A stretch of 64,000 nucleotides of DNA. Origin: Owenia fusiformis. Its lineage: Eukaryota. The position numbers were made by a program, and so were the translations under genes. The stretch lies in NCBI GenBank assembly GCA_903813345.2, contig CAIIXF020000001.1:11718001-11782000 (forward strand), given 5' to 3'. The notes beneath the pieces were generated by a model that was not told the DNA's origin, did not search any database, and worked only from the letters and a program-made list of their open reading frames with translations. Below are positions 17,180-64,000 of this stretch, in pieces; the stretch's first letter is position 1; every line of letters begins with the position of its first letter.

Positions 17180-17722
17180 CTGTGTATTTGTGCTGTTAAC
17201 ATGTTACCTCTTGTGCCTTCTGCTGTATGGATGTATTTGTGTTTTAAATATGTTACCTCTTGTGCCTTCTGATATATTTGTGTTTTTAATATGTTACCTC
17301 TTGTGCCTTCTGTTGTATGGATGTATTTGTGTTTTAAATATGTTACCTCTTGTGCCTTCTGATGTATTTGTGTTTTTAACATGTTACCTCTTGTGGCGTA
17401 TGGATGTATTCGTGTTTTTAATATGTTACCTCTTGTTCCTTCTGTGTCTTTGACATGTTACCTCTTGTGCCTTCTGATGTATTTGTGTTTTTAATATGTT
17501 ACCTCTTGTGCCTTCTGTTGTATGGATGTATTTGTGTTTTAAATATGTTACCTCTTGTGCCTTCTGATGTATTTGTGTTTTTAACATGTTACCTCTTGTG
17601 GCGTATGGATGTATTCGTGTTTTTAATATGTTACCTCTTGTTCCTTCTTTGACATGTTACCTCTTGTGCCTTCTGATGTATTTGTGTTTTTAATATGTTA
17701 CCTCTTGTGCCTTCTAATGTAT
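17180..17722. repeat. Compound minisatellite (~30-44 bp units, core ATGTTACCTCTTGTGCCTTCTG...GTATTTGTGTTTT)
   Basis: Direct tandem copies; they explain the repetitive ORFs at 17002-17652. Confidence 0.9.
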
Positions 17723-17783
17723 GGATTGTTGATTTTGATCATGTTGATTTTTCAGTTGTGATATGTTTTGTAAACTTGTGAGA

Positions 17784-43259: not shown

Positions 43260-43858
43260 ACATTTTACATTCTGTGGTAGAATTAGTGTGGGAAGCAATT
43301 ACGCTTTCACCTAATAGCTGCACAACATTAACATATTAAACTCCTTCTGTGGTAGAATTTATATGGACAGCAATTAGGCTTAGTCACCTAATAGCTGCAC
43401 AACATTAACATATTAAACTCCTTCTGTGGTAGAATTTATATGGACAGCAATTAGGCTTACACCTAATAGCTGCACAACATTAACATATTAAACTCCTTCT
43501 GTGGTAGAATTTATATGGACAGCAATTAGGCTTACACCTAATAGCTGCACAACATTAACATATTAAACTCCTTCTGTGGTAGTATTTATATAGACAGCAA
43601 TTAGGCTTACACCTAATAGCTGCACAACATTTACATTTTACACGCCTTCTGTGGTAGAATTAGTGTGGGCAGCAATTAGGCTTTCACCTAATAGCTGCAC
43701 AACATTAACATATTAAACTCCTTCTGTGGTAGAATTTATATGGACAGCAATTAGGCTTAGTCACCTAATAGCTGCACAACATTTAAATGTTACACGCCTT
43801 CTGTGGTAGAATTTACATGGGCAGCAACTAGGCTGTCGCCAAGTAGCTGCACAAATCT
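43260..43858 (-). repeat. Tandem array of 8 x ~75-77 bp spanning the KYNU stop codon and 3' UTR
   Basis: TTCTGTGGTAG recurs at ~43271, 43346, 43423, 43498, 43573, 43648, 43723 and 43800. The rightmost copy encodes [20 protein letters not shown]. Confidence 0.9.
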
Positions 43859-46800
43859 GTGTACATCTTTGAATGAGTTGTACAGTGGGGCTGGGGCTAT
43901 ACGTATCACATATGGCTTACGAACATCACACTGAAAATAAACAGCAAATGTGTCTTCCGAAGAAAATGTTTACCTATTTTAGATCAACACTTGACAATGT
44001 TAAACCAAAAAATTTAAATGGAACAGCTCAAATATCTTAAACATTTATAATCTAACAGTGTTCATTCATTACTGTTCATTTCAAAAGAAACCTTTGGAAG
44101 CACAATAATAATTGATCATTTTATCAATTTTTTACAGTCAAGTTTCATCATTATGTAACTTAATCTCTCCGGACAAGATATAATTAACTTCAATATTCAA
44201 TCAAGTTTCATATTACTGTATTATCTTATAATGCAGCATCAATCAACTGTCCGGTACATTCAATCAAGTCTCCACAACATGAAATCAACTTACCACAACG
44301 CCTCTTTTCTCCAATTCGGTGTAGACATTCTTTAAAGACACAGAGAACATGATAGAAAGCTGACAACCTCTCTGGTCAGGATCCCTGGGGCTGATGACCT
44401 CCGCATAGGGGCGGGAGTGAGGGTTAGCAGGAGTTGGACGGGGGTAGTGCTCATCCAATAGCATCTCAAGGTATGCTGTGAGTAGCTTAGACTTCTCACG
44501 TAGAGCGCTCATACTAGTTTCATTGAACACCTAAAGTACAAGAGTCACTTCATTTTATAGTGTGTTTTTCATTTTTTTATTCATTCCCCATAAATAATTG
44601 ATATTATGTTGCACGCAAAATAATAAGAGAACCTTAAATACAATATAATACATTATGTACTTGTTAGCTAGGGAATCAAGCAAATTGTCTCGTAAATGAT
44701 AAATGAAATACTTCACATGAATGTACACCTCTGGTCTAGACTGGTTTTATTTGTTTAACTTGTTTGTGTTCAATGTTAAGAATATCTTATGCAACAAAAC
44801 ACTTCATCATAACAGTGCTTTATTTAATCTAAAAATTGTGCAAAATTGACACTCAAGTGGCCGCAATATTGACATTTGAAAATCAGCTGTTGAGCTGAAC
44901 TTCAATCCCCATAGCACAAGTGTATATGCTATACAACATGATCGGGTCATCAGTGAGGCTACTTTTAGAAGCCCTGATTTCATTTGATGAGATAATAAGG
45001 CAGCCAAAGCATTCTCTTCTCAAGGAACCACTTGATAAAAGAGTTAATTGAAAATGAGATTGAACTAACCGACCAATCAGAATGTCACTAATCTAGAGTA
45101 AAATTAACGAAGTAAAATAAATTGATGGCCATACCTTCAGACTAGCCTCTAGTGTAGCACAGAGAAGGGGTGGTGGGTTACTAACACGGTATCCATGTGC
45201 ACCATTTGCTAAATCCATTTCTGAAATAAGGCATTTCATTTGTGCTATATCTATAAGTCACTTTCTAGGCTTTCATTGTGACAAAAAACCAAGCATAACT
45301 TTCACTGTCTGAACCAGAGCTCCCTATTAAGGCACAGTAACAAACAACAAAGTAACAAAATAGAGGAGCAGATATTGTCTTTACAATCTGTACCTAGATA
45401 AATGGAATCCAAAAGCATTTGCATCATGACTACTGGCAACCTTTTTGAAAAGGGTTATTTTATTCATTAAACAAAGTAAAGGCTTAAAAAAATATTGATG
45501 GTGCTCTAAAGCCTCAGTCACATTTGCTCTACGATGGGCATATAGTGGCCGTAGCTTCACAAAATCGATATAAAAATTCTATATCACACTGCTTGTCTCT
45601 ATATTTTATGCTGCATATTTCTCTTGATTTAGGGAAGCTACGGCTGCTGTACAATCAAATATGACTGAGGCATTAGAAGTTTTAAAGATTATGCGACAAT
45701 ACTTACTGTTGTCCATGTTGAATCGTGTGTCCATTTTGTGACCCCACCAGCCTGACAGCTTTGGGAAGTCATTCTTGGCATGTTTCTTGTGAATAAATGC
45801 CCCTGCTATACCACCTGCCCCTGTGTTCAGGTACTGCAATAAAACAAGTAGATGGGAATTACATTTAAGGTACTGCAATAGAAAAATGGCTGGGAATTAC
45901 ATTTAAGGTACTGCAATAGAAAAAATGACACGGAATAACATTTAAGGTACTGCAATAGTAAAATGGCAGGGAATAACATTTAAGGTACTTCAATAGAAAA
46001 AATGGCAGGGAATAACATTTAAGGTACTGCAATAGTAAAATGGCTGGGAATTACATTTAAGGTACTGCAATAGAAAAAATGGCTGGGAATTACATTTAAG
46101 GTACAGCAATAGAAAAATGGCTGGGAATTACATTTAAGGTACTGCAACAGAAAAAAATTGCTGGGAATTACATTTAGGTACTGCAATAGAAAAATAGCTG
46201 GGAATTACATTTAAGGTACTGCAATAGAAAAAAATGGCTGGGAATAACATTTAAGGTACTGCAATAGTAAAATTGCTGGGAATTACATTTAAGGTACTGC
46301 AATAGAAAAAAATGGCTGGGAATAACATTTAAGGTACTGCAATAGTAAAATGGCAGGGAATTACATTTAAGGTACTGCAATAGAAAAAACGGCCGGGAAT
46401 TACATTTAAGGTACTGCAATAGAAAAATGGCTGGGAATTACATTTAAGGTACTGCAATAGTAAAATGGCTGGGAATTACATTTAAGGTACTGCAATAGAA
46501 AAAAAATGGCTGGGAATAACATTTAAGGTACTGCAATAGTAAAATGGCTGGGAATTACATTTAAGGTACTGCAATAGTAAAATGGCTGGGAATTACATTT
46601 AAGGTACTGCAATAGAAAAAAAATGGCTGGGAATAACATTTAAGGTACTGCAATAGTAAAATGGCTGGGAATTACATTTAAGGTACTGCAATAGAAAAAA
46701 TGGCCGGGAATTACATTTAAGGTACTGCAATAGAAAAATGGCTGGGAATTACATTTAAGGTACTGCAATAGAAAAAAATGGCTAGGAATTACTTTTAAGG

Positions 46801-49800
46801 TACTGCAATAGAAAAATGGCTGGGAATTACATTTAAGGTACTGCAACAGAAAAAATGGCTGGGAATTACATTTAGGTACTGCAATAGAAAAATGGCTTGG
46901 AATTACTGTTAAGGTACTGCAAGAGAAAAAATGGCTGGTAATTACATTTAAGGTACTGCAATAGAAAAAATGGCCTAAAATTAGTAATTACAATAAAATG
47001 TATGCATTTTTATATTAAAATGGCTATGGCACAATTATACTTCATAATCAGACAAAAAAATAGGTGTCACCAACTTTTTAGGATTTAAGCTCTCTGGATT
47101 CTGGAATGACCATTCCTTGAAGGTGTTACTTTCCAAAATTTGCACGAGATGCGGAGAATCGAGTCTTAATTTTATGAAACAACACCTGAAAGGAATGGTA
47201 CACAATGCTTTGAATCTTGGACTTAAATTACATTTTCTATAAAATCATTTAAAAGATACAAAATCTCTAAAAGAACATATTTTAAATGAAACTTTTTCCA
47301 AGCGTCAAACTGGCAAAGTATTAATTTCAGTCTGGGTCCAGTCATCATCAAGATGACCATTTAACTAGTGACCTTCGTTATTGGTTATATAACAGAATGC
47401 AGTTACGTAAAATAGCGTGTTCTGATTGGCAAGAATTGAACACATCTTGTCTATGTGTGCACTTTTACTTAAAGCTAGAAAACATTTTGATTTTTGAATT
47501 TTTGCCTACTGGAAATCTTTTAAATAATCAAAATTCGATTTTAAGAAAATAAAAATTCTAGGTATAATCTCCAAAAAATACAATTTTTCTACTTTTTGTA
47601 TGTTTTTGTCTGATATGTTGCTAGTTATATACCATAGTGCAACAAAAGATACATTGAAATGCCATTACTGGTTATAATGCATTAAATCAATCAAAATTAT
47701 GTTTCAATATAAAGTAAATAACAAAAACTATTTTATTTGTCACAAAGCTGACAACTCGTCAAATCATTGCTCCTATGCTAATGCATGGGGCCAATTATGC
47801 CCAGTAAACAGCTACTCTACAGTACAAGTGGCTGTTAATACACCCAGAAGCTTAAAAATTACTTAACGATCAATAAAGAGTATATATTATAGCTTAATTT
47901 ATCTACATGTATCAAGCAAAAAAATAGTGTCACCAACTAACTTCATTTTTTACTGAAGTACGGTAAAATTTTAAATGTTTGGAACTACATGTACTTTGAA
48001 TTTAAAAAATAAGCAATCAAAGGACCATATTGAAACAGTATATGTAAAAAATAGAAACATTATACATGTCCTAGCTTTTGTATATTTTAGTTTGTTTTGT
48101 AGTTTAGCTATCATATCTGTGGCCTCTTATAGGCTAGGCAAATGGAAGTTTAACATCCCCAAAATTGCAACAGTTTTTAAATTAGGCTTATATTGTATAT
48201 TGATACCAGTTGAAAAACATATCAAAAATGTAGAAAAATATATGCAGTGGACAAATATGAAATGTCACATTCTAGGTACCCCCCTCCAAATTTGAGTATG
48301 GGATTGTAAATATTTTTTTATTTCAAAATGGGATGCTCTTCTCAACTAAACGAGTAATATTATGATAGTTTACTGACATAAGAGCAACTAAAAATTGTTA
48401 ACCAACTATTTGAGTGCAATAATTGGCATTTCTAGCCCCAAATATCTGAAATTAGGCCATCAAATAGCCCGAATTTAATATAACAATGTATTTATTTCTG
48501 TATTTATTCATCAGAATTGCATGAAAAAAATCAAGGAGGTTATTATACACCTGACCATTGTATTTGATAAGTATCAGGGTCATTAAGTGGATATTGAGGG
48601 TGAAAAAAATATTTGAAATTTCGATATTTTACCACACACACTTTTGGGGTGACCTTACTTTTGTTTAATTACTTCCAAGATATGTCATATTTGAACTCAG
48701 TAGCACAACTAAATTATTTGTAAAGGCTTATTTTGTCCTGAAAACAGTTTTTTGATGTTTTCAGGAAAGGATTATGTAAAAAAAAGTAGAAAAACAGCAA
48801 ATGCCAGGTGAAATATAGGGGAAGTCCTACTTTTAGTTGATAACTGCTAAATTATCAAATGTTTTTTCCTTTTAAATTCAATTTGATATATAATATACCT
48901 TTTCTGGTAAAAGAGAGAACGATTTGTTAGAAATTAAGTACAATTGGTGGTCTAAAAATATCCTTGAAAAGGCAACAAAATGTTAAATATCCCTGTCCCT
49001 GACATCAGTTTATTTATATGAGCCAAAAAAAGGTAACCCAACCAAATGTTTGTTAATAACCCAGTCATTCAGCATGGGTGTGACATCATATTTGGCACAA
49101 TTACCTTGTTCAATGTGCTTTCATTCTACTAAGTGTCATTGATGTATCCTTAATAGTCATGATTTTATGGCCATTTACAAAATGTGCTCAAAATATCGAA
49201 ATGTGCCTAACTGACTGGACATCAATACCACCATTTTTTATTATCTGTGGACCTTTTTTCTATACCAACAACACTTGAAACATTAAAACAAGAGATAAGA
49301 ATGAAGATGAGAGCCATGACACAAGATTTTTATGCTCCTGATTTGAACAACAACATACGATACGTTCAAGTTGGCCTCCAGGCATGACACTCATATTTCA
49401 TGGAATGGTATAAAATGGCCATAAAAATCGTGACCACTAGAGATAGACCACTGAGACTTGATAATACATTGACCAAGGCTCAATTCTGCCAAATATGACA
49501 CTAAATCCATGCAGGGTGACTGGACTGGGTTATTAAGATTTGTTTGGGTTACGTTTTTGGCTCGCCCTGTATTAAGGAAAAAGTGTTACTTTTGACTAAG
49601 GTGTTCTTAACCACACAGTGATATTGAGAAATGAAATGAATAAGTTCAACTGAAGAATGTTGGATTTCAAGATGAAATTTAATAAAAAATGAGGAAAAGG
49701 TTTCTACGTTAATAAATACTACTGAGTTAACTAGTGTAAATCCCTGGTCTTTATACAGGGCATGGCTCGATAATGTTATGTTCATTATCAAAAATGCTGC

Positions 49801-52800
49801 CTTAATTTTGTAATCTTAACCTTCATATATGTGTCTTACTTATAGAGAGCAAAAAATAATGCTGATTACTTAAGCTAATATTATGTTGTAACAACAATCA
49901 GTTACAACCTTGTCTATCACCTGTCTTCATTAGGGGTTGACCTGGGAACCAACAAGGGGGGGGGGCAAATTTCAGGTCTGAGAAAAAGATTTCTGCGGTT
50001 GCGCGAAAAAAATTTTGGGCCCCTAAACCCCTTAAGTGGGCCCAAATTTTGAAATAATGGGGCCCATTTTCTTCAAAATTTGGCCTGAAATTAAAAAATA
50101 AGGATTTAAAAGGCCCTCTTATGACCAGAAAGGCCCACTTTTTAGGGCCTTAAGGCTTTTTTTGGTCCCAATTTTTATTCTAGGGCCACCCAAGGAGGCC
50201 CGGGTCCCCAGCCCCCCACCCAGATCCGCCAGTGTTCATCATTATTTTCATGATCAGTTATGGAGGTATTTGGCCCGTTATGCCTTTGCATACCTACTTC
50301 ATAGATGTACAATATGCCTTACACACACAATGGATGATCTCTGAGAGAGGGGAGCTGCATTTAGGCAATGGGAACAAACGTTTCGTTGCTTATTTCCCTC
50401 CCACTCCTGGATCTGATGGTACACTCTATAATTGTTGTTTTCCGCAGCATCAGAAGTTGGAGGAAGAACACGGGGCTGCAATAATTTAGATCTTGCTGCT
50501 CTCTTTTAATAGAATTTTTGAAGCCTAAGTTCATTTAGGGTTTCACCATTTTTCCACCATAAATTGACAAAAGAGCATGTTCCTCTGCAATGACAGAGTT
50601 ACTTGCATTTCACTGGTTTTCCACTTGATTACGTTGTAACAAAATGTCGGAACATCGAAGATAAGATTTTTCTTTTTTCCTTATTTCACACGTTGTAGGC
50701 AGAATTATCACAAACATGTATCGGTATCATACATGTACGTTTAAAAAATGTACATATTTGCGAACAAATAGTTCAGAAGACAACAAAATCGTCGATTTAC
50801 TTCCTCACTTAAGTTACATAAATGGTATTTTGATAAACAGTTAAGATCTGCACTTTGAACTTAAGTAAGGAATTAAATCAACAATTCTGTTGTCTTCTGA
50901 GCTATTTTTGCACAAACATGTACATTTTCTAAAACATATGATACTGATACACGATTGTGAGAAAAAAAACATCGTGGGGATTCTGGCTACAACGCGTGAA
51001 AAAAAGGAAAAAAGAAATATCGTGCCTTCGACGTTTAGACATTTGTTACCGAAACGACCCGTTTCGGTAACAAAATGTAACAAGAACTCACTCTTTTCTA
51101 TCTGCCTCAATGATAGCTTCTTGTCTATGCCATATATAACCTGAATGCGTTGTCACACCCCAGAAAAGATAAACAAAATATTGTCACAGACCACTTTTCC
51201 CGAAGACAATCTTATTTCATTTATGTTCCAACATTTTGATTCTTGGGTTGCTGCTTTTGGTTCAGGTTTGAAGAAAATGTTGAAGTTTGTGTTTTGTGCA
51301 TGATAAATGAGAAGCACAAGGGGGTCAGTATGAGTACTGTATTTGAGGTTTGGACACTTTGCATTGCAGTTTTCACAATCACAATATCTGCATCCGATTC
51401 TGAATGCAGCACATGTACACTCAATGTTTTCCAACCTGACAGACAGATTTACCATCATTCCTACGCACTGAAATTATATTAATGAAAGACTCCCCGGATA
51501 TCTGAGATTTAAATGTGCTCTATCAGTTTAAATTCCGTTTACACTGGCGGATTAGGGGGGGGGGGCTGGGGCCCCTTAGGTTGGCCCATTTTTTGGGCCA
51601 AACAAGGCCTTCAGGCCCCAAAAAGTGGACCCACTTTTGGATTTTAGTTGCCCAAAACTTTTTTCTCCGACCTGAAAATTGGGCCCCCCTCTTGTTGGTT
51701 CCTAGATTCGCCCCTGGTTTAATAACCATAAATTCGTTTCTACAGCATTATACATCCAATTGATAGTTCCAAAGTAACGTACTCTTATGTAATGATTTAT
51801 TTATCTGATGAATTTAAATTTTGTAATTGCGGATTGTAGATAATAATTTAAACAATATTAAATTCCACAGAAACTACAACTTACATTATTTAGATAAGCC
51901 TAGTATAGAGCAGTTATCAAATACCCTAATATCAGAGTGGTGATATGTAATTATTCATCAAATACAAGTGAGGTCACCTTAACATTTCACCTGGTGCAAC
52001 TAATAATTCCTAGTTTTCATACTAATAAGGTATAAACCGTCACAAAACTTGTATTTTAGATGATGACAATCCTATATAAATGATTTAGATGTCAACTCTA
52101 ATACAAATGTGATGCATTGTGGGAGTTAGTCATCAAAACTATAGTCTCCCCTTATAGTAGGCGGGGCAAAACTATGAAAATGAAATAATTTTTTTCTTCC
52201 TAAGTATACACGTTAGAATTCTGACACTCACCAAATATGAAGTTCATATAAATATGTAACACCATGATTTTTTTCATGCTTTTCTGACAAACTGATCCTA
52301 AAATATCTAAATAGATATGTGATAACATGCCTGTTTTGTGGCCTATTTTGTTATACTTTGGGGTCAAATGACCAACTACTGGTCTCAAAAATGATTAAAA
52401 TAATATTTTAATTATTTGTGAATATGTGATCTATCATAATAAAGCTAGAATACTTGACTAAAGTATTCCATTTGGGAAGGAAAAATTGTTTCCTACCAAT
52501 ACTCAATTTTGGGGTAGGGTTGTAGGGGGTACCTAGGAAGTGAAATTTCATATTTGTCCACTGCATACATTTTTCTACATTTTTGATATGTTTTTCAACT
52601 GATATCAATACATAATATAAGACTAATTTAAAAACTGTTGCAATTTTGGGGATGTTTGGGCCTTTTATGAGCCCATTTGCTTGGCCTATTATATTTTGAT
52701 GCCTCTCTGCCATGTTATTTTCGGAAAAATTAACATGGCTGAAACTCCCTAAATTACAAAAGGCCACAGCTTTACTGCACATTATACATAACTATCTGAA

Positions 52801-55800
52801 ATATACAAAAGTTAGGACAAGTACATATGTTTCTATTTTTTTATATACTGTTGCAATATAGTCATTTGATTGCTTATTTTTTAAGTTCAAAGTAGTTCCA
52901 AACATTTAAAATTTTACTGTAATAAAGATCGAGATTCTATGCAGGGGTTTCATTAGCAGTAGGTGACAGGCGATTTTCACTATTTTTTTCATAGCCTGTT
53001 GTTTTTAGGGACTTTTCAACTTTTCCATGTTTTTATGATTTCCATTTATTTTGCCTGTTGTTTTCATTTATTTAGCCTGTTGTGAGAAATTCTAGTGAAA
53101 CCCCCGAAGATTTATGGCATAATATATCACCAATGATTTTATTCCATTTATTGTAAAAATCCCATATCTTGTATATTAGTGATTGAGGACTTTGGCAATG
53201 ATCCATAAATCATCGAATCAAGGTCCTTTTGTTATTGTATCTACCTACATACTGTACCTACATATTGTATAATCCTACTTAACTCCGGTTCAAGCTTGTT
53301 TCAAATAAACAACAATTGAATAATCCAAAATTTGTGAAGTTGTTTTGAAATTGGCTCAGTGCCCTTTTGACCTTCTAATCCAAATAAAACTTCATAACAG
53401 GCTGTAATTTGATACAGACCTTCATATTGACCCAGACTGAACATAATAATAATAAATATTAGCCCATTGCATAATATATCAGATTAGCTGTCTATTTATA
53501 TCCGTACATTCTATTGTTACAAGAAGGTTAGTTGAACACTCCCTTTATCCCAAAATTAGATCATTGCACATGGTGACCTTTTTGGGTTGATCACCTTGTA
53601 CTTGGTTTAAAGTTGTTATTGTTGATACCAACCTTCACATTGACCATGACCATGTGGACAGTATATAAATATCGTCTATAATATGGCAGATTATCTGTAA
53701 CTTAATTTTGTAACTTAATATCTCTTAATATTATTATGTCAAAACTCCTCATCTAGTAAACGGAATGAAAAATCTACTTGCACATTTTCAGCTCTTAATG
53801 TAATTAATTCACTTTAAACAGCAATATTTACAATAGTCAAAGTATCAAAATCTATTAAAGGGGCAATTTATAGGTTGTTCCTGATTTAAAGGGAATGAGG
53901 GAATTTGAAGGTCAAGGATTGGTCAATGATTGCCCCTTTAACAATGGTCATAACCCACTTCTGTCAACAAACTTATCTGAGGGTCAAGGATTTTTAAGGC
54001 ACCAGTTGAACTTAAAAATAAGAAATCTAAAGGTTATTGTGCAATACTATATGGAAAAACATATTCATACTGCACACGAATGACATTTGTGTATTTCAGA
54101 TTATTTAGTGTTTAGTGCAATAAGCCTGTACTCTCTTGTAATTTGAGGTCTATCCACCATTTTATTTTTTTCAGAATTAACATGGCAGAGAAGCATCAAA
54201 ATATAAGAGGTTACAGACTTTATAAGCCAATTTACAAGCAATTCAAGATATACAAATGTCATTTGTGTGCAATATGAATAAATCTTTCTATATATTGTTG
54301 CATAATAGTCTTTTGATTTCTTATTTCTTATGTTCAACTGGCTGCCTTGAAGCAGTTTTACAGGCTGTAGAAAATGCCAACTCCACGGCCAAGTAGCAAA
54401 ATCCCAATAAAAAAATTCATGAATCTGTATATGTCACAATATTATATTTACCATCTACTCTACAATTGATTTGCATAAGGCAGCCACTTTTAGGTGCCAC
54501 ATTAGGTGTTATTTTAAATTTCTGAGGCCCGAATCAGAAAAACGATACAATATTTGTACTCTACTCTAAAATTTCATTTCATTTAAGTATGATAAAGCAA
54601 TACTTCCTAAAGATCTTAAAATTAATGAAAATTCCTGTTTTAATAAATAGCACCTGGGGTTCTTGCTAAAAAACACAGATTATAATTCGTAAAGTCAAAT
54701 AGACATTTTATGGATAAACTACCACAAGAGTAAAACTTATTACTTTAGAAATGAAAAACTTCCTATTTATCTTACTAATACTTATCAATAAACATCTTTC
54801 CACCAAATATGAAGAAAATCTATCAATTAGTTGTTGCAATAGGTTGCTGCTTATGTTGTTAGCTTGAGAATATCTTTGTTTTTTCTTCTCATTCTTCCAC
54901 TATTTGGAATTTACTCAGTTTTTCATTTCAAGATTTATCCTTTACTTATCCATGTGGGACCTCACTTATGTGCTATATCAAATAATACCCCTGTGTCCCA
55001 TGTTTACCCAATTTAAGCAACACCTGCTTCCATGGGAACACAGCCTCCAGGCTCAGAAGAGCTTGGACAGACAGACAGAGGGCTTCACTATATCCAAACT
55101 GAACTATCTTACTGCCTATATCATATTCAAATATGTTTGACTTAGCTTAGCTAAGCTGCAGTGACCGGCAGTGAACTGTTAGTGTCTCGACTATTAGAGG
55201 TCATTTTAGAGCTAACCTCTAGTAATACACTCAGAGTTTATGAATAGAGGACCAAATACACCTAAACATTTCTCAAATTGTTGATTTACATTAACCCGAT
55301 TTCCTTGATAAATGTTCGCTGTGTATATGTGGCCTTAAAAATTACAATTTAAAAAAATTTGGATAAATCTCCAGCTTCAACAGACCATACAATGATAAAA
55401 GTACTACATGTATTTAAATAGATTTCAGATCATGGGTTACATGACCTTCCACAGACATCTAAGTTTGTACATGGTGACACCTGTCTTTGGTTTATACAAT
55501 ACTACAATAGCATGATCCCTTAAAGATGTAGACTCACTCAATGCTCAATGTAATTACTGCCTATACGCCAGCCAACAGCCATACTGACTACCCCCTCCCC
55601 CTAAGTGGATTTTGTATTAAATAACAAAACCAGGCCCCGTATGCTGTTATACTACATACAAAAACTAAATCCTAATAACATAAAAGTATGATGAGACCCC
55701 AACAGGTCCATAGTCAGCATTTGCCAAGGGGCATCCAATTTTGGCCTATAATCACTTGAAACTGCTCAAAATGGTGAAGCTGTATGGTTTTGAAAGAATT

Positions 55801-58800
55801 TTTGGCCAGAGAGGCTGACTACGGACCTGCCTCATTTATAGTCCTAACCTTCATGGGACTGCCATCCAAGGACTGAATTAAAATGAATAAATCAGAGTAG
55901 ACTGGAAGACAAGTTTATTTATCTTTTTGAATGTCTTGTAACAAATTTTTGATGGAGCCAATAATGCTTCAGAGTATAGGCCCTCGACATTATGTATTAT
56001 GTATTTCATTTAAAACAAAGAAGAAATTGACCTAAAGAATTTATAGTCTTACTATAGTGTATATAAGTATTATGGTACGGATGTGTTAATTAATATTTTA
56101 AAATAAATAAATATGCCACACCTTTAACAAACATGCCCCATGTAATACCATATGTGCATAACTTGTCAATAATCTTAATTAAGATTGAAGATGATTAATT
56201 AATAAAAATCTTAAAATACACAAAGAGTGCATGTAATTAATTAATTAATTGTGTAACCCTTGTACAATGTGTTCACCTGAATAGTATATAAAGGCCACCA
56301 AAAATGAAGAAGTCATAGTTCCATTGAGCGTTCAATCTACAATTATGTTAACTTTAGCAGTTTTCGTCGCAGGACTCGCAGCAGTGATGGCTGAGGGATA
56401 TGGATGTAAGTACAATATATTAAACTTAAAAGTTATTGATCACACCTCATATTTCATACAAGGCATTAACATGACAAAATGACACCACCTAGTTGCTCAC
56501 AATATTATGAGTTCAATCTTAAGTCAGATTTGAATTTCTGAGAACTAGTTGATTTTGAGTATAAAATTGGTCAATTTAACCCTTTCACGACGATAGGCTC
56601 CATATGGAGCCCTATTATGTAATACCTTTCAGGACGATAGGCTCCTTTTGGCACCATTATTTTTATCTATATACATCAATGAAATGACAATATCTCCAGT
56701 TCTATTCAGTATTTTTACACCAAATTTTGACAAGTTGTTCTAATGTGATAATCCTTACTAAAAATTGTATTTCAGTGATAAAATTCAGGGTATAGGTCCC
56801 GGGGCGTAGGTATTTTGCAGTTTTCCCCTAAAAACTGCTCTTACTTATCCGTCACCAGAGCCAACATTTTCCTCTTATATTCATGTCGGGAAAGGGTTAA
56901 GCAAGATGGAAAAATACCTTTTTGACCTTGAGAATGCCATTGAAAGTCAAATCTATAGTTAGATTTGAACTGTTGAGAACTTGTAGATGATTTTGATAAA
57001 AAAAATTGGTCAATTTGAAGCAAGTTGTAAATAGACCTTTTAGACTTTTTTGACCTTGAGAAGGTCATTGAAGGTCAAATCTCAAATCTAAAGTCAGATT
57101 TGATTTTTTGATAACTTGTAGATGATTTTGAAAAAAAAAAATTGTTTGAAACTTATTTATTTTAAAGTTTTGTAACAGGTCATCACCCAGTGATGCTGAC
57201 ATATATAAATTGGTACAATCTAATCATATAACATTTTCAACTGTTATTTAACAATTTATAAAATATAAATGTCAACGCAAAAATCAGGAGAAATACCCGG
57301 GAACAGTTCTGATACTGGATTTGATACAGGATTTTGGCTGATACAGGTTATGATACAGTATTCTGTCTGATACGGGATCTGATACTGGATTTCAGCCGAT
57401 ACAAGATCTGATATAGGATCTTTTGAATATAAATTCTATTGTCTGTTAATTTTTCAGAGAATTTCAGGGAAAACATGTTATTATGGAATAATTATATATA
57501 TATTTCCCTCGAGATAAACCCTCATAAAATAACTTTTTTATTCTAGCCCGATGCTTTGACTGCAACTATGCCCCATCAGGCTACAGCTACCAGTCTGACT
57601 ACTGGAAGCGATCCACCACAGCTGGGTATGAGGGATGTGCCCTAGCTAACTATGATGATGCTGATAACCTCGACAAATGGACCTGCAAATCTGGAAGGTG
57701 CTTCATCCGTAGGGACAAGAATGGACGTAAGTTGTCTTAATGTGTAACTACAGTGATGACATTTACTTTTAACACATCTTACATGTTTTTAATTGTGTAA
57801 ACCAAGGTTATACATGTATGGATATGGGTTTGATGAGACCTGGGTTGGGATGATATCATAAGGGACTGAGATGAACTCAGATTAAGAGGGCCAAGGCTGA
57901 TGACAACGAGGGGTTAATCTGACTTTAGGCTACCTTGACCGAGATTTTATTCGATCAATTGTATTGACTATCATGTCACCACCAGAAGTGTTGATATATC
58001 ATAATTGTTTTTAAATATTGATTTGCCATTAATTCCCAACCACTTTTGCAGTTGTATACAGAGGATGTGCTGATGAGGAAAACCTCCCCCTTGGTGTCAA
58101 CTCTTACAGTGGCTGCCAGTATGTTGCTGGATCCCAGTGGTATTTCTGCAAGGGAGATCTCTGCAACAAGGGACAGATTGGAGACTACGGACATTGTGAC
58201 TACAAGCCATCATACCGATCCCACAGCTACAGTAAGTACAGCATACAAGGCATTAACATGACAAAATGTCACCACCTAGTTGCTCACAACATAATTAGTT
58301 CAATCTAAAGTCAGATTGGAATATCTGAGAACTTGTAGATGATTTTGAAAAAAATTGGTCAATTTGAAGCAAGTTGAAAAAAGACCTTTTTGACCTTGAG
58401 AAGGTCATTGAAGGTCAAATATATTTTGACCTTGAGAATGCCCTTGGAGGTCGAATCTATAGTCAGATTTGAACTTTTGAGAACTTGTAGATGATTTTGA
58501 AAAAAATGGTCAATTTGAAGCAAGTTGAAAAAATACACTTTTGACCTTTCTTTGACCTTGGGAAGGTCACTGAAGGTCAAATCTTAGTTCTAAAGTCAAA
58601 TTTGAACAGTTCATGTATAATTAACTATCATAGCTTCAAAAAAAGATTATATAACTTTATATATCTATTATATACTTTATATATATGACTTAAATATTAT
58701 TGCAATACATGTGGTCTCACTTTTATTTTAGACCCATGTGACGGCAAATGCTACGGCAACCCCAGTGGACTCTTCAAGGACAACTACAACCCATACGGGT

Positions 58801-61800
58801 TCATCCAGTGTGGATGTGACTACAAATACGATGCCTACAGCAAGACCAGCAAGGCCTGTATCTGCTGCAAGCCCCTCCATGTCAAATGCCCCAAGGGAAC
58901 AGCTTTCAATGACTACGCCAAGGTCTGTGACACTGCAAGCTACACTGCCCCACATGCTGCCCCTGTCCACCATGCCCCTGTCCACCATGCCCCAGCTTAC
59001 CCAAGCTACCATGCTCCAGCTTACCCAAGCTACCATTAAACCTTTGTTGTTAAGAATTTGTAGTGTTTTAATAAATCAAGAAAATGAACATTTTTGGTTT
59101 AGTCGGTTTATGCATGTTGTTTAAACAAAGGAGATTTCAGTTATTAGAATTCGCAGATTTTACTACTTACTCAAAATAATTGGACTACCCATACTGTACA
59201 TTCAATACCCTATACATTTTTAAATCGTGAGATTTGCACTAATTTGATTACTGCAAGGCCATAAAAGGATGGTACATACAATCATATCATCTTTGTTCAC
59301 CTTCATACAATTCGTTGATCGCCTTCATACAATTAGTGTAACATTCCTGACAATCCATATGGGGCATGTCATGCACATTATGACTTGCCTAATATAATAC
59401 ATGAAACACCATATAAGGAGAGCATAATACATGAAATACCATATAAGAAGAGCATAATACATGGAATACCATATAAGAAGAGCATAATACATGAAATACC
59501 ATATAAGGAGAGCATAATACATGAAATACCATATATAAGAAGAACATAATACATGAAATACCATATAAGGAGAGCATAATACATGAAATACCATATAAGA
59601 AGAGCATAATACATGAAATACCATATAAGGAGAGCATAATACATGAAATACCATATATACAGGTAGCTATATGATGGGATCACTAGGGGAGGCCATTTGT
59701 ACTGAAAGAAGAGTTTTCAGTATGTTTTTGTACTGAAAATTTTTTTTAAGTATATATTTGTATACTGAAAATGTACTGACTTTTTACAGTGTAAAATAAG
59801 TACTGAAAAATATACTGACTTTTTAAGGACATTTTTAAGTCTATTAAACACTAACAATTTTAAAAGGATTTAAAACAGCACGTGTATGTATGGAGGACAA
59901 AGCAAATGTCTAAAGTCATCAAGCTTGTAAGTCTAGTGTTGATAATATACAATTGTTGGCCTCTCCAGAGGTCAACCGGCAAAATTGTATACCGAGACTG
60001 TAAACCAAGAAACTACTGTTGACAGAGACCGAAGGTCGAGGTCAACAGTAGTTTCAAGGTTTACAGTCGAGGTATATGATTTTGACAGTTGACCGAATGG
60101 AGAGGTCTACAATTGTTTTGTTAGTACGAAGAAACTACAGTAATAATGCACATATACAGTATATAGACGACAATCATCAATCGGCATGGCTTCATTTCAC
60201 AATCTTTTCTCCGAACCACGCCAACAATATTTTTTAGGAAATCTGAAGGCAGTTGAAGCTAAACTCTCTGTTTTCGACACATCACTGGGTACTCATTAGT
60301 AAATTAATGTTAATTTTACGTTTCTATTTGTATTTTTGTATGTAAAGTCAAAATATCAATTTCATCAACATTTACAAAATGTCCGTCTGCCATGTTTTAT
60401 CTGTAGACATTATGACGTCATAAAACTTTTTTCAAAATTAGCGGTCAACAGTACCCAGTAGCGGTCAACAGTACATATTGTTGACCGCTAATCAACCAAT
60501 CAGAATCGGGTATTTCAGTTGAGGTACTAACAACATACCTTGTAAGTGCACCAGCATGCAAAGTCAACATCCCAGTCATGTAGCTGTAACTCTATGTTGC
60601 CAACAGCATGGGCGAGGTCAAAGCCAACATAACAGCCCTACAAGGAAACAACTTTATATTGAATCTTTTTTCATGTAATATATATCTACAGGCAATGTAC
60701 ATGTGGTAATATTCACTGTGATTCTATGTTGCAATTAAAAAGGAAAAAACTTCGGTGCAATTATACTCCAGCTTAAAGTTAAAAACATTTATTCGGTAAA
60801 AATTTAGCATCTGTACAATTACATTTTTTTTTTCAACGTTTGCCTTAGCATTTCCTCAGGTAAAGCGTTTTGGTTTTATTTCCTCCTTTATAAAATTAAA
60901 AGCCAACTTACTTTTTCATGGCCAGCTTTAGTAATAGCAGGCATATCAAACACTTGTCCCGTGTAGTACTGTATCCCACTGAATAATACACAGGCTATCT
61001 CATCCCCCTCTGAGGCAATACGAGCTAAGATGTCTTCTGTGCGCAGTATGTGTTCACCCTACAACATGTATTGATACACATACATGTACCCTAGACACAA
61101 ATATGGGAATATTTTAACCAAATGGTTCAATTCAATTACTGTAAACTACTTGACATATATAATACATGAGATGAATTGAAGGAAAATTTTAATTTAAAAG
61201 ATGAGGTAGAAACTGAGTAGGGCTGGATATATCCAAAAATTGATGACTCGGCAATTCTCATTTCTCCGAAAAGAAACTAGATTTATATGGTTTACGGGGC
61301 TTGTTTAAAATATACATGTATTGTATACTGTATAGGTCTTACCTCTCTAGGTTCAAGGCATACCATACTGGTTGCAGGGTCATATCCATGTAAACGAATT
61401 TGTGATTCAATGGCATACTGTAAATAAAATATACAAATATGTAAATTATACATTATCATATCATTGTACCACATAGCCACTGAGCAGAGTTCGCAAGGAC
61501 ATCTCCCTGCTCGCTAATGATGGTGAACAAGGGCGAACCATGAAAAGAATGGCTGCAATGCAGTGGTAATAATCTATAGTATAAAACTAGAAGAATTAGA
61601 TCACAGCAATGCCAAAGTGTAGCAAATCCCAATGAACAGCTGCCATTTTTACAAAATTCTACAACTTTTTCAGTTATAGCAAAACTCCTTAAATAACACC
61701 CATAAAGATGGCCATCATTTTCAAAATAGTCACTCACTAGCCAAATAAATCAGCACTAAAATGGCTGCCATTTTTAGACAAGTGGCCATTTTGAAAATCG

Positions 61801-62681
61801 GAATGGAATATAATGCCAGTATCAACTCCTCCCATCAGATGAGCTTAGATCAGAAAATTGACACAGTAACAAATCATGTTTCTAGTTCTTTTTCTATTTT
61901 CTAGTACAAAAACAAAAGGATGTGAAACGTATCGAAACAAGGCATTAACATGCAAAATGTACCACCTGTCATTTGTTACAGATGCCAAACGTCAACCACT
62001 GACCACCAAATGCCTAAAAACATCCACAAAAAAAGTTGGAGACTATAACAATATGTCACCACTTGTGATGGTGACATGATAATAATGTATGGTCTCAGTA
62101 TATATAATTGAAAATGTAAGTTTATGGGGAGGTATACAATCTTACGAGTACATCTCTAGAAGGATGACTTTAACCTTTACAATTATGTACTTACATGGTC
62201 AGAAGGGAATGCTCTGCTTTCAAGTAGCACTTTGTGTCGTTTAGCAGTGGGACGATAAAATGAGACCTACAAAAGAGGTAACAATGAGTCTGCTTTATCA
62301 GGATAAAGGTGTAAGGAATATGATTTTGTCAATTAAAACATCAAATCAATGTTTCACATTCAGAAAATGATGGAAAGTTTGCTTGAAATGAAAGGGGTAC
62401 ATGGACCAGGTAATAGGTAAAGTATGAACTATGCCTTAGCTCTCTCATTATAACTATCTAATGATTTTCTTATATAAGATCACCAGTTTGTGCACCAAAT
62501 GTTGCAAGAAAATACATAGCTGTGGAACCTATAATATGCCAGGAATACTGAAGAAAGTGACAGCTTAGCAATTGGTACTTTGGTATTGTTTTAGGGGCAA
62601 TGAAATAATTACTACTCACAAGTAGAAGATGAAGATTTACAGTTAAGCCATTCATGATTGCAACCTCTTCTCTTTTTGCAC
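43790..62681 (-). CDS. KYNU: Kynureninase, 5'-partial (last 9 exons): 62681-62620, 62266-62195, 61417-61343, 61058-60912, 60637-60539, 45833-45707, 45220-45135, 44530-44294, 43930-43790
   Basis: [19 protein letters not shown]...[85 protein letters not shown]. All introns are GT-AG and phase-consistent. I found no further upstream exons inside the window. Confidence 0.95.
45830..46975 (-). repeat. Minisatellite of 29 x 38-41 bp duplicating the KYNU 3' splice site
   Basis: Minus-strand unit AAATGTAATTCCCAGCCATTTTTCTATTGCAG-TACCTT; the true acceptor reads GTTTTATTGCAG|TACCTGAAC. Confidence 0.95.
49931..50234. mobile_element. GC-rich MITE with 5-bp TSD inserted in Academ copy 2
   Basis: TAGGGGTTGACCT ... 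AGATCCGCCAGTG flanked by TTCAT on both sides; absent from Academ copy 1. Confidence 0.7.
51542..51716. mobile_element. GC-rich MITE with 5-bp TSD (same family, opposite orientation)
   Basis: CACTGGCGGATT ... AGATTCGCCCCTG flanked by GTTTA; the empty site is at ~5236 in copy 1. Confidence 0.7.
56285..56320 (+). promoter_or_regulatory. TATA box and initiator-like site of the nested gene
   Basis: TATATAAA at 56285-56292, TCATAGTT ~30 nt downstream, ATG at 56345. Confidence 0.65.
56345..59039 (+). CDS. Nested secreted protein: Ly6/uPAR-like domain + CBM14/peritrophin-A-like chitin-binding domain + His/Tyr/Pro/Ala tail (242 aa). Exons 56345-56405, 57547-57726, 58052-58231, 58732-59039
   Basis: Signal peptide [21 protein letters not shown]...GC...C...C...YRGCA...GC...[15 protein letters not shown]...[15 protein letters not shown]...[15 protein letters not shown]; tail [30 protein letters not shown]. 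Three phase-1 GT-AG introns; AATAAA at 59070-59075. The supplied ORF track misses this frame. Confidence 0.88.
56580..56896. mobile_element. piggyBac-like MITE in intron 1 of the nested gene
   Basis: TTAA|CCCTTTCACGAC ... GTCGGGAAAGGG|TTAA. It interrupts a HINE-like repeat whose uninterrupted version lies in intron 3. Confidence 0.75.
59390..59657. repeat. Minisatellite, ~9 x 30 bp (CATAATACATGAAATACCATATAAGGAGAG)
   Basis: Direct tandem copies; source of the repetitive ORFs at 59325-59683. Confidence 0.92.
59938..60533. mobile_element. Unclassified repeat with a ~190-bp hairpin (possibly Crypton-like non-autonomous element)
   Basis: Long palindrome centred on CCGAAGG (~60029-60035); the GTTAGTAC/GTACTAAC motif recurs at the right end; CCAATCAG. 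A similar hairpin lies at ~42350-42500. Confidence 0.45.
61936..62083 (-). mobile_element. Minimal HINE-like element
   Basis: AACAAGGCATTAACATG end shared with elements at 56457 and 58245; terminal hairpin ATGTCACCA-CTTGTGA-TGGTGACAT. Confidence 0.5.
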
Positions 62682-64000
62682 CTAATATAGGAACATAAAA
62701 TTAATTCTAAAATCAACACATGTAGATATAATATTATGAATACATGAATGAATGTACTACATTTAAGATAGTATAAACTATTAGTGAGAAAACACTTTAT
62801 AGAGCTGTTATACTTTGACTCTGTGTGGGCTCATCATTTGCCTCCGTGTGAATAATTTGGGGCAAACGGTGGGGCACAGCATGGGATACATGTTGGGCAA
62901 AACAAGTACTTTTACAGCAAAATATCATCCATCACACCAAATACAAAGATTAATTGAAAGTGTCTCCTTGAGCAGAGATATTAGCCTATAAATTTGGACT
63001 AAATATCTATAATTTGGTCTACAAATGGTATTGAAGTTATCAAAACTATAAGGCTTTAGCGCTTCTTTATCTCCCTTGAAGTTCATTCTTTGGGATAATC
63101 AAATCAAATCTTTTGACGGGGATTTAATTTGGATTTTTTGATTTTTTGAGTCTGTATGCAGGAATATGTATGTTTTGATGGTCCGAAATGGTAGAACAAG
63201 ATATTGACATCATGTACGAAAAATTTCATCAACATCTGATCACTAATTAAAAAGTTATGACTGTTTGAAAATAATTGGTCAAAATTAGTCAATTTTCAGG
63301 AAATTAATTATAGTACCGATTCTAGCAATGTCGCAAATTTGCTAATTTATGGTCAAAAGAGTTAAAAAATGAATGCCCAAAATTAGCCACATCATGGCAA
63401 ATGGTGAGCCCACATGGCCATGACAGGTTCTTCTACAGGTTTGAAATATTTTTTAAGAGATAAAACAAGATAAAAACAAAGGGTTAAAAGGGACCAATGC
63501 AAAAGTTCAATGTACTAGAGCTAAACTATGTTTTAATAAAGTTTCCAACTTATCAACGACCTTCTCATATCCAACCCCCCCCCCCCCCCACAAGGAATAT
63601 CCCATTGTCAGATTGCTGTAATTAGGGTTACTTTATATTCTTCTATTTTAGGTATTTCTACCAAATCAGAATCAGATCTATTGGGGGTGACAAAATTACA
63701 ACCAACACGTATAACTTTCCAACATTTTCCTTACATCTCAAATACAATATCTGACAAACGGTCCAAAACATTTTATCAGTTGGTGAAGTTATTTAAGTTT
63801 AAAAATGCAAAAATTAGAGAAAATGTTCAACAAATAATAAATATAAAAAAACGAATGAATTATTATAAAATCCTCAAATAAAGTATTCGCCTTGGGTATT
63901 TTTAGAAAATAAACATGACAAGGAATGATATGAGCAACTAACATTCTAAAATCAAAACATTTTTTGTATGGTTGCTTGATCTGATCTGATACTACCTTTA

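Follow-up and report, generated by a model that had tools for sequence, protein, structure and literature searches.

A probable mirage-type minisatellite reiterates the 3' splice site of a long kynureninase intron in Owenia fusiformis

The kynureninase gene and its long intron

Within the window, the 64-kb stretch of genomic DNA that was analysed and to which all positions refer, lies a kynureninase gene of the annelid Owenia fusiformis, which was identified by a 100% protein match. The earlier note on this DNA had labelled the gene KYNU; kynureninase it is, but the vertebrate name does not apply, since the exon is 100% identical to the Owenia fusiformis protein. The Pfam matches PF22580 and PF00266 (PLP-dependent, aminotransferase class V fold) are precomputed for this 100% identical protein. 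The two exons bordering the intron considered here (Table 1) can be aligned to human kynureninase (PDB 3e9k): the upstream exon matches residues 244-276 with an E value of 6e-17, and the downstream exon matches residues 277-318 with an E value of 4e-14. The final lysine of the upstream exon aligns with human K276, in keeping with the earlier proposal that the lysine at the junction is the PLP Schiff-base residue. According to the excerpted text of PMC9191678, K276 of the human enzyme forms the internal aldimine with PLP. Both annotated protein isoforms (2/2) contain the canonical sequence WCTYK/YLN; here and below, the slash marks the splice junction.

Other kynureninase introns for which joints were seen in the window measure 274 to 777 nt, and the present one is 19 to 54 times longer. 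It starts behind the upstream exon with the donor AAG/GTATGT, and the exon that follows it carries a strong GTAAGT donor at its end, 127 nt past the real acceptor. The first five bases of this exon, TACCT, are the exon part that is copied into each unit of a tandem array occupying the 3' end of the intron. No known structured RNAs were found between positions 43000 and 64000 at Rfam gathering scores, and 12 long ORFs located within the intron or close to it gave no Pfam match at the curated cut-off.

Table 1. Features of the kynureninase intron and its flanking exons (positions in the window)
Feature	Position	Strand	Source
38-bp minisatellite, 29.6 copies	45829..46974	minus	Tandem Repeats Finder, unit list, core motif search
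Unit 0, a degenerate leading unit that contains TACTAAT and leads into the first decoy AG (46957-46956)	46975..47003	minus	Sequence, motif position
Last unit (unit 29), ending in the real acceptor AG (45835-45834)	45834..45872	minus	Sequence, unit list
Kynureninase exon, 127 nt, starting YLNTGAGG	45707..45833	minus	tblastn; RNA joints 45833/60539 and 45218/45707
Intron, 14,705 nt, GT..AG	45834..60538	minus	RNA joint table
Upstream exon, 99 nt (33 aa), last codon (60541-60539) for the PLP lysine	60539..60637	minus	RNA joint, protein alignment

Structure of the repeat array

Tandem Repeats Finder calls the array as a single repeat with 90% matches and a score of 1777, and it also calls higher-order periods of 77 and 155. 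With a period of 38 and 29.6 copies, the array consists of head-to-tail units of minisatellite size, as do the so-called mirages, minisatellites in which an exon/intron boundary is reiterated. Read on the minus strand, the unit has the layout TACCT-TAAATGTAATTCC-CAGCC-(T-rich tract)-TTGCAG. It begins with five exon-like bases, followed by GTAAT, which resembles a branch site or a donor, then by a pyrimidine tract and finally by an AG. Sites resembling TTGCAGTACCT occur 30 times on the minus strand, made up of 29 decoys and the real acceptor, which agrees with the 29 decoy 3' splice sites counted upstream of the exon in the earlier note. Most of the other structural details given there were recovered as well: the units are 38 to 41 bp long (38 nt in 16 units, 39 in 8, 40 in 3 and 41 in 2), CAG is retained in 27 of the 29 decoys (the exceptions being CTG in unit 23 and AAG in unit 26), and the TACTAAT in front of the first-transcribed copy is located at 46986-46980, 25 nt ahead of the first AG. 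The weak GTAATT donor had been ascribed to every unit; GTAAT is present in 22 of the 29 units, and the remaining 7 carry GTTAT. When the window was searched with the 28-nt unit core, 25 matches with at most 3 mismatches were obtained, all of them on the minus strand and within the array, and none of 100 shuffles gave any match.

The 29 units fall into 20 types, some of which recur as identical copies (type G five times, type D four times), and a higher-order block GHG-GHG is present. Units 1-3 and 29 show an identity of 0.85-0.92 to the commonest unit; values of up to 1.00 occur among the inner units, although the inner units 21, 25 and 27 are likewise low with only 0.85-0.87. The array thus displays the concerted evolution with edge units left out that is known from mirages, and its dynamics are typical of a true minisatellite. 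The array ends at 45829, i.e., 5 nt inside the exon starting at 45833, and its terminal unit spans the exon/intron boundary, which is a further property of mirages. Unit 29 resembles the other units in its 5' half; its 3' half is diverged (CCCATCTACTTGTTTTATTGCAG) and provides 37 AG-free nucleotides before the real acceptor. At 0.85, its identity to the commonest unit is joint lowest.

A second array is found in the same gene, which reiterates the last 20 codons together with the stop codon and is situated in the 3' UTR. Overall, the window contains 12 distinct tandem arrays and is rich in such sequences.

Real and decoy acceptors

The pyrimidine fraction at positions -20 to -3 is 0.61-0.83 in the decoys, 0.72 at the real site and 0.56-0.78 at the seven other acceptors of the gene, and the real site and the decoys do not differ in the branch-like half of the unit. 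Judged by these sequence features, the decoys are probably not weaker than the real site on the intron side. A clear difference is seen downstream: in the 40 nt that follow the AG, the fraction of purines is 0.62 at the real site, compared to 0.30-0.42 at the decoys (all 29). Since the downstream sequence is the only clear difference, exon definition is likely to be what discriminates the real acceptor from the decoys; exon definition alone, however, does not readily explain how the real AG is told apart from decoy 29, located just 39 nt further upstream, the use of which would still result in an exon of 166 nt.

Other candidate causes were considered and rejected. A weaker tract or branch region of the decoys was discarded, since no such difference was found. 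Masking of the decoys by RNA structure finds no support in local folding, in which the real site is no more open than the decoys; the probability of being unpaired is 0.0004 for the 12-nt stretch that ends with the real AG vs. a decoy mean of 0.006, and 0.046 for the real tract vs. 0.081 +/- 0.036 for the decoy tracts. An internal CAG located 15-18 nt before the decoy AG, which is present in 22 of 29 units, does not qualify as the sole disabling feature either, since six decoy units lack it, as does unit 29.

RNA evidence for acceptor choice

RNA joints confirm both donor 60539 and acceptor 45833, which had previously been proposed from the sequence. In the raw RNA run X18, the canonical joint 60539/45833 is covered by 4 reads from 3 starts and is as well supported as the neighbouring joints, which have 1-4 reads. 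In run X6, it is part of one spliced contig with a depth of 890.8, which also holds six other kynureninase joints. Reads across the canonical joint number zero in the raw RNA run X17 and zero in X1; the latter behaves like DNA, with even low cover across introns and exons and no spliced joints. Joints were listed when they had at least 3 reads, and the RNA is steady-state RNA from material in which NMD was not blocked. Across the four runs X1, X6, X17 and X18, the 15 joints listed, beyond which there are 234 more, include none to a decoy. Splicing at the authentic, exon-adjacent copy, as is the case in mirages, is therefore seen in RNA, with thin read support that leaves room for minor decoy use. 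One of the two alternatives suggested earlier, namely that some 1.1 kb of near-perfect acceptors is passed over by the spliceosome, fits the RNA at hand, as donor 60539 is connected to 45833 only, among the joints listed.

Read depth was also inspected in the bin 45791-46457, which comprises units 14-29 and 43 exon bases. It is 0 in X17 and 0.33 in X18, the latter value being due to the 43 exon bases. In X6, the depth of this bin is 61.8, nearly all of which comes from the exon bases, which give 57.4 (43 x 890.8 / 667); what remains for the array, when spread over units 14-29, corresponds to about 0.5% of the depth of the mRNA contig. As a rough bound, the X6 depth allows use of the nearest in-frame decoy of up to about 8%. 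In the runs X9-X16, 9 of 25 sampled words are present, which is about what would be expected from the exon alone.

Origin of the array and alternative explanations

We consider it quite probable that the array is a mirage-type minisatellite, i.e., a reiterated intron/exon boundary, which likely lacks a function and of which the real copy is used. It most likely has no function at all and is neutral or slightly deleterious. The array may have arisen by the tandem duplication of a segment of about 38 bp, consisting of the last ~33 intron bases with the branch-like GTAAT, the pyrimidine tract and TTGCAG, and of TACCT, the five bases with which the exon starts. The expansion of this segment to about 29 copies in the kynureninase gene of Owenia fusiformis could then be due to slippage during replication or to unequal exchange. 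The gene would survive this unharmed because the exon-adjacent copy is preserved, provided that the spliceosome uses that copy. The decoys would be passed over in favour of the last copy, which is the only one to precede the real, purine-rich exon with its strong GTAAGT donor. Through exon definition, U2AF and U2 would thereby be held at the last unit, whereas the decoys merely precede more U-rich repeat.

One alternative, which corresponds to the second proposal of the earlier note, is that the array acts as a rheostat of unproductive splicing: some pre-mRNA would be joined to decoys and removed by NMD, and the array length would set the amount of productive kynureninase mRNA. The decoys indeed look competent, with CAG in 27 of 29, tracts equal to the real one and a branch-like GTAAT about 24 nt upstream. 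The earlier note had stated that the nearest decoy inserts 13 amino acids in frame after the lysine, and this decoy does add 39 nt in frame. The other 28 of the 29 decoys are predicted to lead to a stop codon 6-79 codons past the junction, so that the alternative junction introduces a premature stop, as unproductive splicing and NMD require; the products of these 28 decoys could therefore be lost to NMD, unseen, and would be under-represented in steady-state RNA. In addition, one or two of the nearest pseudo-sites are also used in the human 6-16 and CBS genes, as described in the excerpted part of PMC1557585. On the other hand, decoy joints are absent from the joints listed, the read depth of the array is about nil in two raw RNA runs and leaves a residue of ~0.5% in X6, and the canonical joint is no less well supported than its neighbours. 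Moreover, amphioxus mirages give no aberrant mRNAs, as far as the excerpts of PMC3087553 and PMC3902484 report. We thus regard a rheostat as unlikely. A copy-number-dependent brake, in which the earlier-transcribed acceptors capture spliceosomes and direct the transcript to NMD, or in which the nearest decoy yields an inactive enzyme with 13 additional residues, appears rather improbable.

The array could also be a functional intronic element, whose ~29 tracts and GTAAT motifs load or sponge U2AF, PTB, hnRNP-C-like proteins or U1; it would then mark the 3' end of the 14.7-kb intron or slow down intron removal. The U-rich tract and the U1-like GTAAT of the units, the position of the array exactly at the intron 3' end and the length of the intron, which exceeds the gene's others seen as joints 19-54 times, would be in line with such a role. 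However, there is no evidence of selection, as the 29 units comprise 20 types and 7 of them lack GTAAT, and predicted accessibility does not distinguish the real site. The similar array in the 3' UTR of the same gene and the total of 12 arrays in the window also point to mutation pressure rather than function, and we give this explanation little credence. A further suggestion of the earlier note, the stepwise or recursive removal of the long intron, with decoy acceptors and weak GTAATT donors as intermediate sites, does not hold. Recursive splice sites need AG/GT, which rebuilds a 5' splice site after the first step. Each unit does offer an acceptor and, 10 nt further on, a GT (as GTAAT in 22 of 29 units), but all 29 decoys read AG/TACCT, and the junction AAG/TACCTT rebuilds no GT donor. 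If the unit's own donor (AAT/GTAATT) were used instead, each step would leave 10 nt behind and shift the frame; this donor also lacks the G at -1 and +5, unlike the eight real donors of the gene. Recursive joints are absent among the joints listed as well, which makes this route barely conceivable. Finally, the array or its copy number could result from a mis-assembled repeat, since assemblies easily get the copy number of tandem repeats wrong, and one amphioxus mirage was mis-assembled in a draft genome (excerpted text of PMC3087553). The copies are not identical but vary in a structured manner, with several unit variants, blocks of higher order and divergence at the edges, which speaks against an artefact, as does the depth of X1 in the array bin (3.8 vs. 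2.7-6.7 in nearby bins), although X1 may be the source of the assembly. An assembly artefact is therefore considered very improbable.

Significance

If the reading as a mirage-type minisatellite is true, an annelid, acceptor-side, high-copy example is added to the boundary-reiterating mirages. The array represents a natural substrate for studying the choice among about 30 near-identical 3' splice site candidates, in which branch region, tract and AG are constant and the downstream exon is the sole variable; since the junction lies next to the codon of the PLP lysine, mis-splicing could easily be scored. A practical consequence is not evident. If the array were a copy-number-dependent brake, the flux through the kynurenine pathway would differ between alleles of unequal length. 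The locus would then represent a natural equivalent, at the 3' splice site, of the F7 model discussed below, and would show how far exon definition overrides the "first come, first served" choice of acceptors.

Comparison with known systems

Several AGs compete for one donor in the Owenia array, and the same applies to NAGNAG acceptors and to recursive splice sites. NAGNAG acceptors lie 3 nt apart and have one branch point and one tract in common, whereas the Owenia sites are spaced by 38-41 nt and possess their own tract each. Recursive sites differ in that they read AG/GT, in contrast to the AG/TA of the Owenia decoys. This type of array is already in print, namely in the form of the amphioxus mirages and the human F7 VNTR, and the Owenia case adds to a known class; a search of the literature on splicing and minisatellites returned neither a case from annelids nor an acceptor-side array of such size.

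Mirages were first described by Canestro et al. 2002 (as cited in PMC3087553 and PMC3902484). The excerpts of these two papers name amphioxus mirage minisatellites in Adh3, troponin C, the globins BflGb6 and BflGb9 and PGBD5; they report that splicing is undisturbed, including in the acceptor-side case BflGb6, and that length or somatic instability has been shown for the Adh3 mirage. As far as these excerpts describe them, the amphioxus mirages and the Owenia array share the tandem reiteration of an exon/intron boundary with splice signals copied into the intron, and in both, regular splicing is kept and edge units escape homogenisation. The closest of them is BflGb6, in which, according to the same excerpts, the 3' end of the intron and the start of the exon are copied, i.e., the same side as in Owenia; its units, however, are 150-160 bp long and present in 3-6 copies, compared to 38 bp and ~29 copies in Owenia. 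Furthermore, the hosts differ (an annelid vs. a cephalochordate), and the exonic part is much shorter in the Owenia array (5 nt).

Boundary-reiterating minisatellites are also known from human genes, including the VNTR in intron 7 of F7 and other donor-side examples (6-16, CBS, LMNB2, PDGF), in which the exon-adjacent site is used according to the excerpted text of PMC1557585. As described there, the F7 group reiterates the 5' splice site at the intron start, in contrast to the 3' splice site and branch region at the intron end in Owenia; F7 has 5-9 copies instead of ~29, and its pseudo-sites were proven functional by mutating 50 constructs, whereas the Owenia decoys are known from sequence. 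In other respects, the resemblance to the F7 array, as portrayed in the same excerpt, is close: the unit length is nearly equal (37 bp in F7 vs. 38 bp in Owenia), the terminal unit is composed of 4 exon and 33 intron bases in F7 and of 5 and ~33 in Owenia, and in both cases a row of pseudo-splice sites is present, of which the exon-adjacent one is used.

Array anatomy and gene context

The details that the earlier note had read from the sequence, namely an array of decoy 3' splice sites directly upstream of a kynureninase exon, were all borne out by tandem repeat finding, splitting on a motif, the list of units and shuffles, and the array itself is confirmed (see table). Tandem Repeats Finder gives a period of 38, 29.6 copies, 90% matches and a score of 1777, and it also detects higher-order periods at 77 and 155. 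Splitting the array on the motif TTGCAGTACCT yields 30 sites, which are the real acceptor and 29 intronic acceptor-like AGs, here called decoys; the units are numbered 1 to 29 in transcription order. The decoy AG stands in a CAG context in 27 of 29 cases, the others being CTG in unit 23 and AAG in unit 26. The units are 38 (n = 16), 39 (n = 8), 40 (n = 3) or 41 nt (n = 2) long, and the array covers five exon bases (TACCT). A 28-nt core of the unit has 25 matches with at most three mismatches in the 64-kb window, all of them minus-strand hits within the array, whereas 100 shuffles yielded none.

Features of the kynureninase locus and further tandem arrays in the window
Feature	Position	Strand	Basis or remark
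Kynureninase-intron minisatellite	46974-45829	minus	Tandem Repeats Finder (TRF)
TACTAAT of the degenerate leading unit	46986-46980	minus	25 nt ahead of first decoy AG
Kynureninase exon	45833-45707	minus	translation, 100% identity to protein labelled Owenia fusiformis
Upstream kynureninase exon, protein end ...FACWCTYK	60637-60539	minus	aligns with human kynureninase 3e9k residues 244-276
Second kynureninase minisatellite, 75-77 bp x 7.7 copies	43270-43854	minus	repeat listing, tblastn
Tandem array within 14,705-nt intron, 30 bp x 8.7	59394-59657		TRF
Tandem array, 162 bp x 8, 53-codon open frames per unit on plus strand	11049-12339		TRF
Complex array, periods 41, 90, 205	17178-17767	minus	

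A tblastn search using the proteins of Owenia and Capitella as queries placed nine kynureninase exons on the minus strand from 62688 to 43793. The intron carrying the array (45834-60538) has a length of 14,705 nt, compared with 274-777 nt for the others seen as joints. The protein of the exon behind the array is 81% identical to kynureninase of the annelid Capitella teleta and aligns with residues 277-318 of human kynureninase 3e9k. With the full identity to the Owenia protein, this assigns the window to an annelid and not to a vertebrate. Since the upstream exon ends at the equivalent of human K276, which forms the internal aldimine with PLP (PMC9191678), the claim that the active-site PLP lysine lies at the junction holds. 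The isoforms annotated in Owenia, of 339 and 493 aa, both have the canonical junction sequence. The 339-aa isoform starts at an internal Met in exon 62614-62688; the 493-aa isoform has 154 additional N-terminal residues, which are mostly encoded upstream of the exons placed by tblastn in the window.

Splicing across the array

Raw reads of the RNA-seq runs X17 and X18 and contigs of the older runs X1 and X6 were placed on positions 43790-63789. The joint 45833/60539 skips 14,705 bases, has GT..AG ends on the minus strand and is supported by four X18 reads with three starts and by a single X6 contig with a depth of 890.8. The same X6 depth recurs at joints 44528/45133, 45218/45707, 60636/60911, 61057/61342, 61417/62195 and 62264/62618, and all seven kynureninase joints therefore belong to one spliced mRNA. 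The neighbouring kynureninase joints have one to four reads each in X18, compared with four on the array-spanning joint, which is thus not depleted. X17 has no read on this joint and three reads over the remaining kynureninase joints combined; X1 shows uniformly low coverage across introns as well as exons and no spliced joints, and therefore behaves like DNA. At a threshold of three reads or a contig, 15 joints are listed, with 234 further ones beyond the list, and none of the 15 leads from 60539 to a decoy in X1, X6, X17 or X18. Over 45791-46457, which holds units 14-29 and 43 exon bases, X17 has a sense-strand depth of 0 and X18 one of 0.33, the latter being accounted for by the exon bases within the bin. 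In X6, this bin has a depth of 61.8, and the exon share is 57.4 (43 x 890.8 / 667); the residue, if distributed over the 624 array bases, amounts to about 0.5% of the mRNA depth and, if it came wholly from the nearest decoy, permits use of up to about 8%, both being orders of magnitude only, as contig depth is a poor measure according to the warning of the tool.

Very high read or contig depth was also seen in the bins 52461-53127, 56463-57129 and 57797-58463 of the same intron and in bin 61799-62465 of a neighbouring intron. Most reads fit only in part, 0.89 of the placed reads continue into unlike sequence, and ACCAAACACC-like or A-rich stretches are frequent at the loose read ends. No Rfam match was obtained; the high-depth bins are probably dispersed repeats common to abundant transcripts.

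Use of the nearest decoy, whose first base is 45872, would add 39 nt, i.e., the 13 aa in frame directly after the PLP lysine that had been proposed, and the remaining 28 of 29 decoys lead to a stop 6-79 codons past the junction. Judged from their reading frames, the products of these 28 would be NMD substrates and under-represented in ordinary RNA-seq. The earlier note had suggested that the decoys are either bypassed or tune kynureninase output through copy number. Bypass is what the RNA seen displays, with joint 45833/60539 present and none to decoys among those listed; that the array acts as a copy-number-dependent brake on kynureninase through decoy splicing is quite unlikely. The array is probably neutral. 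It belongs with the boundary-spanning minisatellites named 'mirages' in amphioxus, where they are described in Adh3, troponin C, globins and PGBD5 (PMC3087553, PMC3902484). The further proposal of stepwise or recursive splicing fails on sequence: recursive splicing would leave the junction AAG|TACCTT, which lacks GT, and stepwise splicing via the unit donor AAT|GTAATT would retain 10 nt in the mRNA. The donor-like motif reads GTTAT instead in 7 of 29 units, and the real kynureninase donors are GTAAGT, GTGAGT, GTATGT and GTATGG.

Choice of the exon-adjacent copy

The pyrimidine fraction at -20 to -3 is 0.61-0.83 in the decoys, 0.72 at the real site and 0.56-0.78 at the seven other acceptors of the gene; by this measure, the decoys are no weaker on the intron side than the real site. 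The 5' half of unit 29, including the branch-like TTAAATGTAATT, is identical to that of other units. Accessibility is not supported as a discriminator, the predicted local accessibility not favouring the real acceptor. An internal CAG 15-18 nt ahead of the AG is present in 22 of 29 units and absent from unit 29; six decoy units also lack it, and its loss is therefore not the whole answer. Of the first 40 nt past the AG, 62% are purines in the case of the real site, compared with 30-42% for all 29 decoys, so that, at the sequence level, downstream purine content is the one feature among those compared that separates the real site from every decoy. The real exon ends 127 nt downstream of the acceptor with ACA|GTAAGT. 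Exon definition, acting via factors bound to enhancers together with U1 on the donor downstream, would fix U2AF and U2 on the exon-adjacent unit; it does not cleanly account for the presumed silence of decoy 29, just 39 nt upstream.

Origin and other arrays

The 29 units fall into 20 types, with one type occurring five times and another four times, and a three-unit block is repeated. Divergence is greatest in the units at the edges, whose identity to the commonest unit is 0.85-0.92. Arrays that expand through slippage and unequal exchange usually show such a pattern. In all, 12 distinct tandem arrays with a TRF score of at least 150 lie in the window. We infer a mutational origin of the intron array in an array-prone genome, in which duplication of the boundary would be tolerated because the exon-attached copy stays intact. 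In the second kynureninase minisatellite, the first unit comprises the last 20 codons and the stop codon, followed by another seven, diverged copies in the 3' UTR, each with its own stop; judged by its units, what this mirage reiterates is the coding end and not a splice site. The units of the complex array each carry the good donor-like motif AAGAG|GTAACAT, and the array begins about 50 nt past a 235-codon open frame (18491-17784), which ends near CTAG|GTAAAT and has no Pfam match. Although it does not span the boundary near CTAG|GTAAAT, this array may be related to the mirages, on the donor side.

Comparison with known systems

A literature search, with most subscription journals outside it, found no annelid case or acceptor-side array of such copy number. 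In human F7, a 37-bp VNTR of intron 7 comprises four exon and 33 intron bases and creates 4-8 pseudo-donors, and the exon-adjacent site alone is used; further boundary minisatellites are known from 6-16, CBS, LMNB2 and PDGF, and in 6-16 and CBS the nearest one or two pseudo-sites are used as well (PMC1557585). The Owenia array would lend itself well to natural studies of how a 3' splice site is chosen. It resembles the amphioxus globin BflGb6 in lying on the acceptor side: the BflGb6 unit combines the 3' end of an intron with the beginning of the exon, and splicing was regular by RT-PCR (PMC3087553, PMC3902484). The Owenia array is a new acceptor-side mirage, from an annelid and with an unusual copy number, of a kind already in print.
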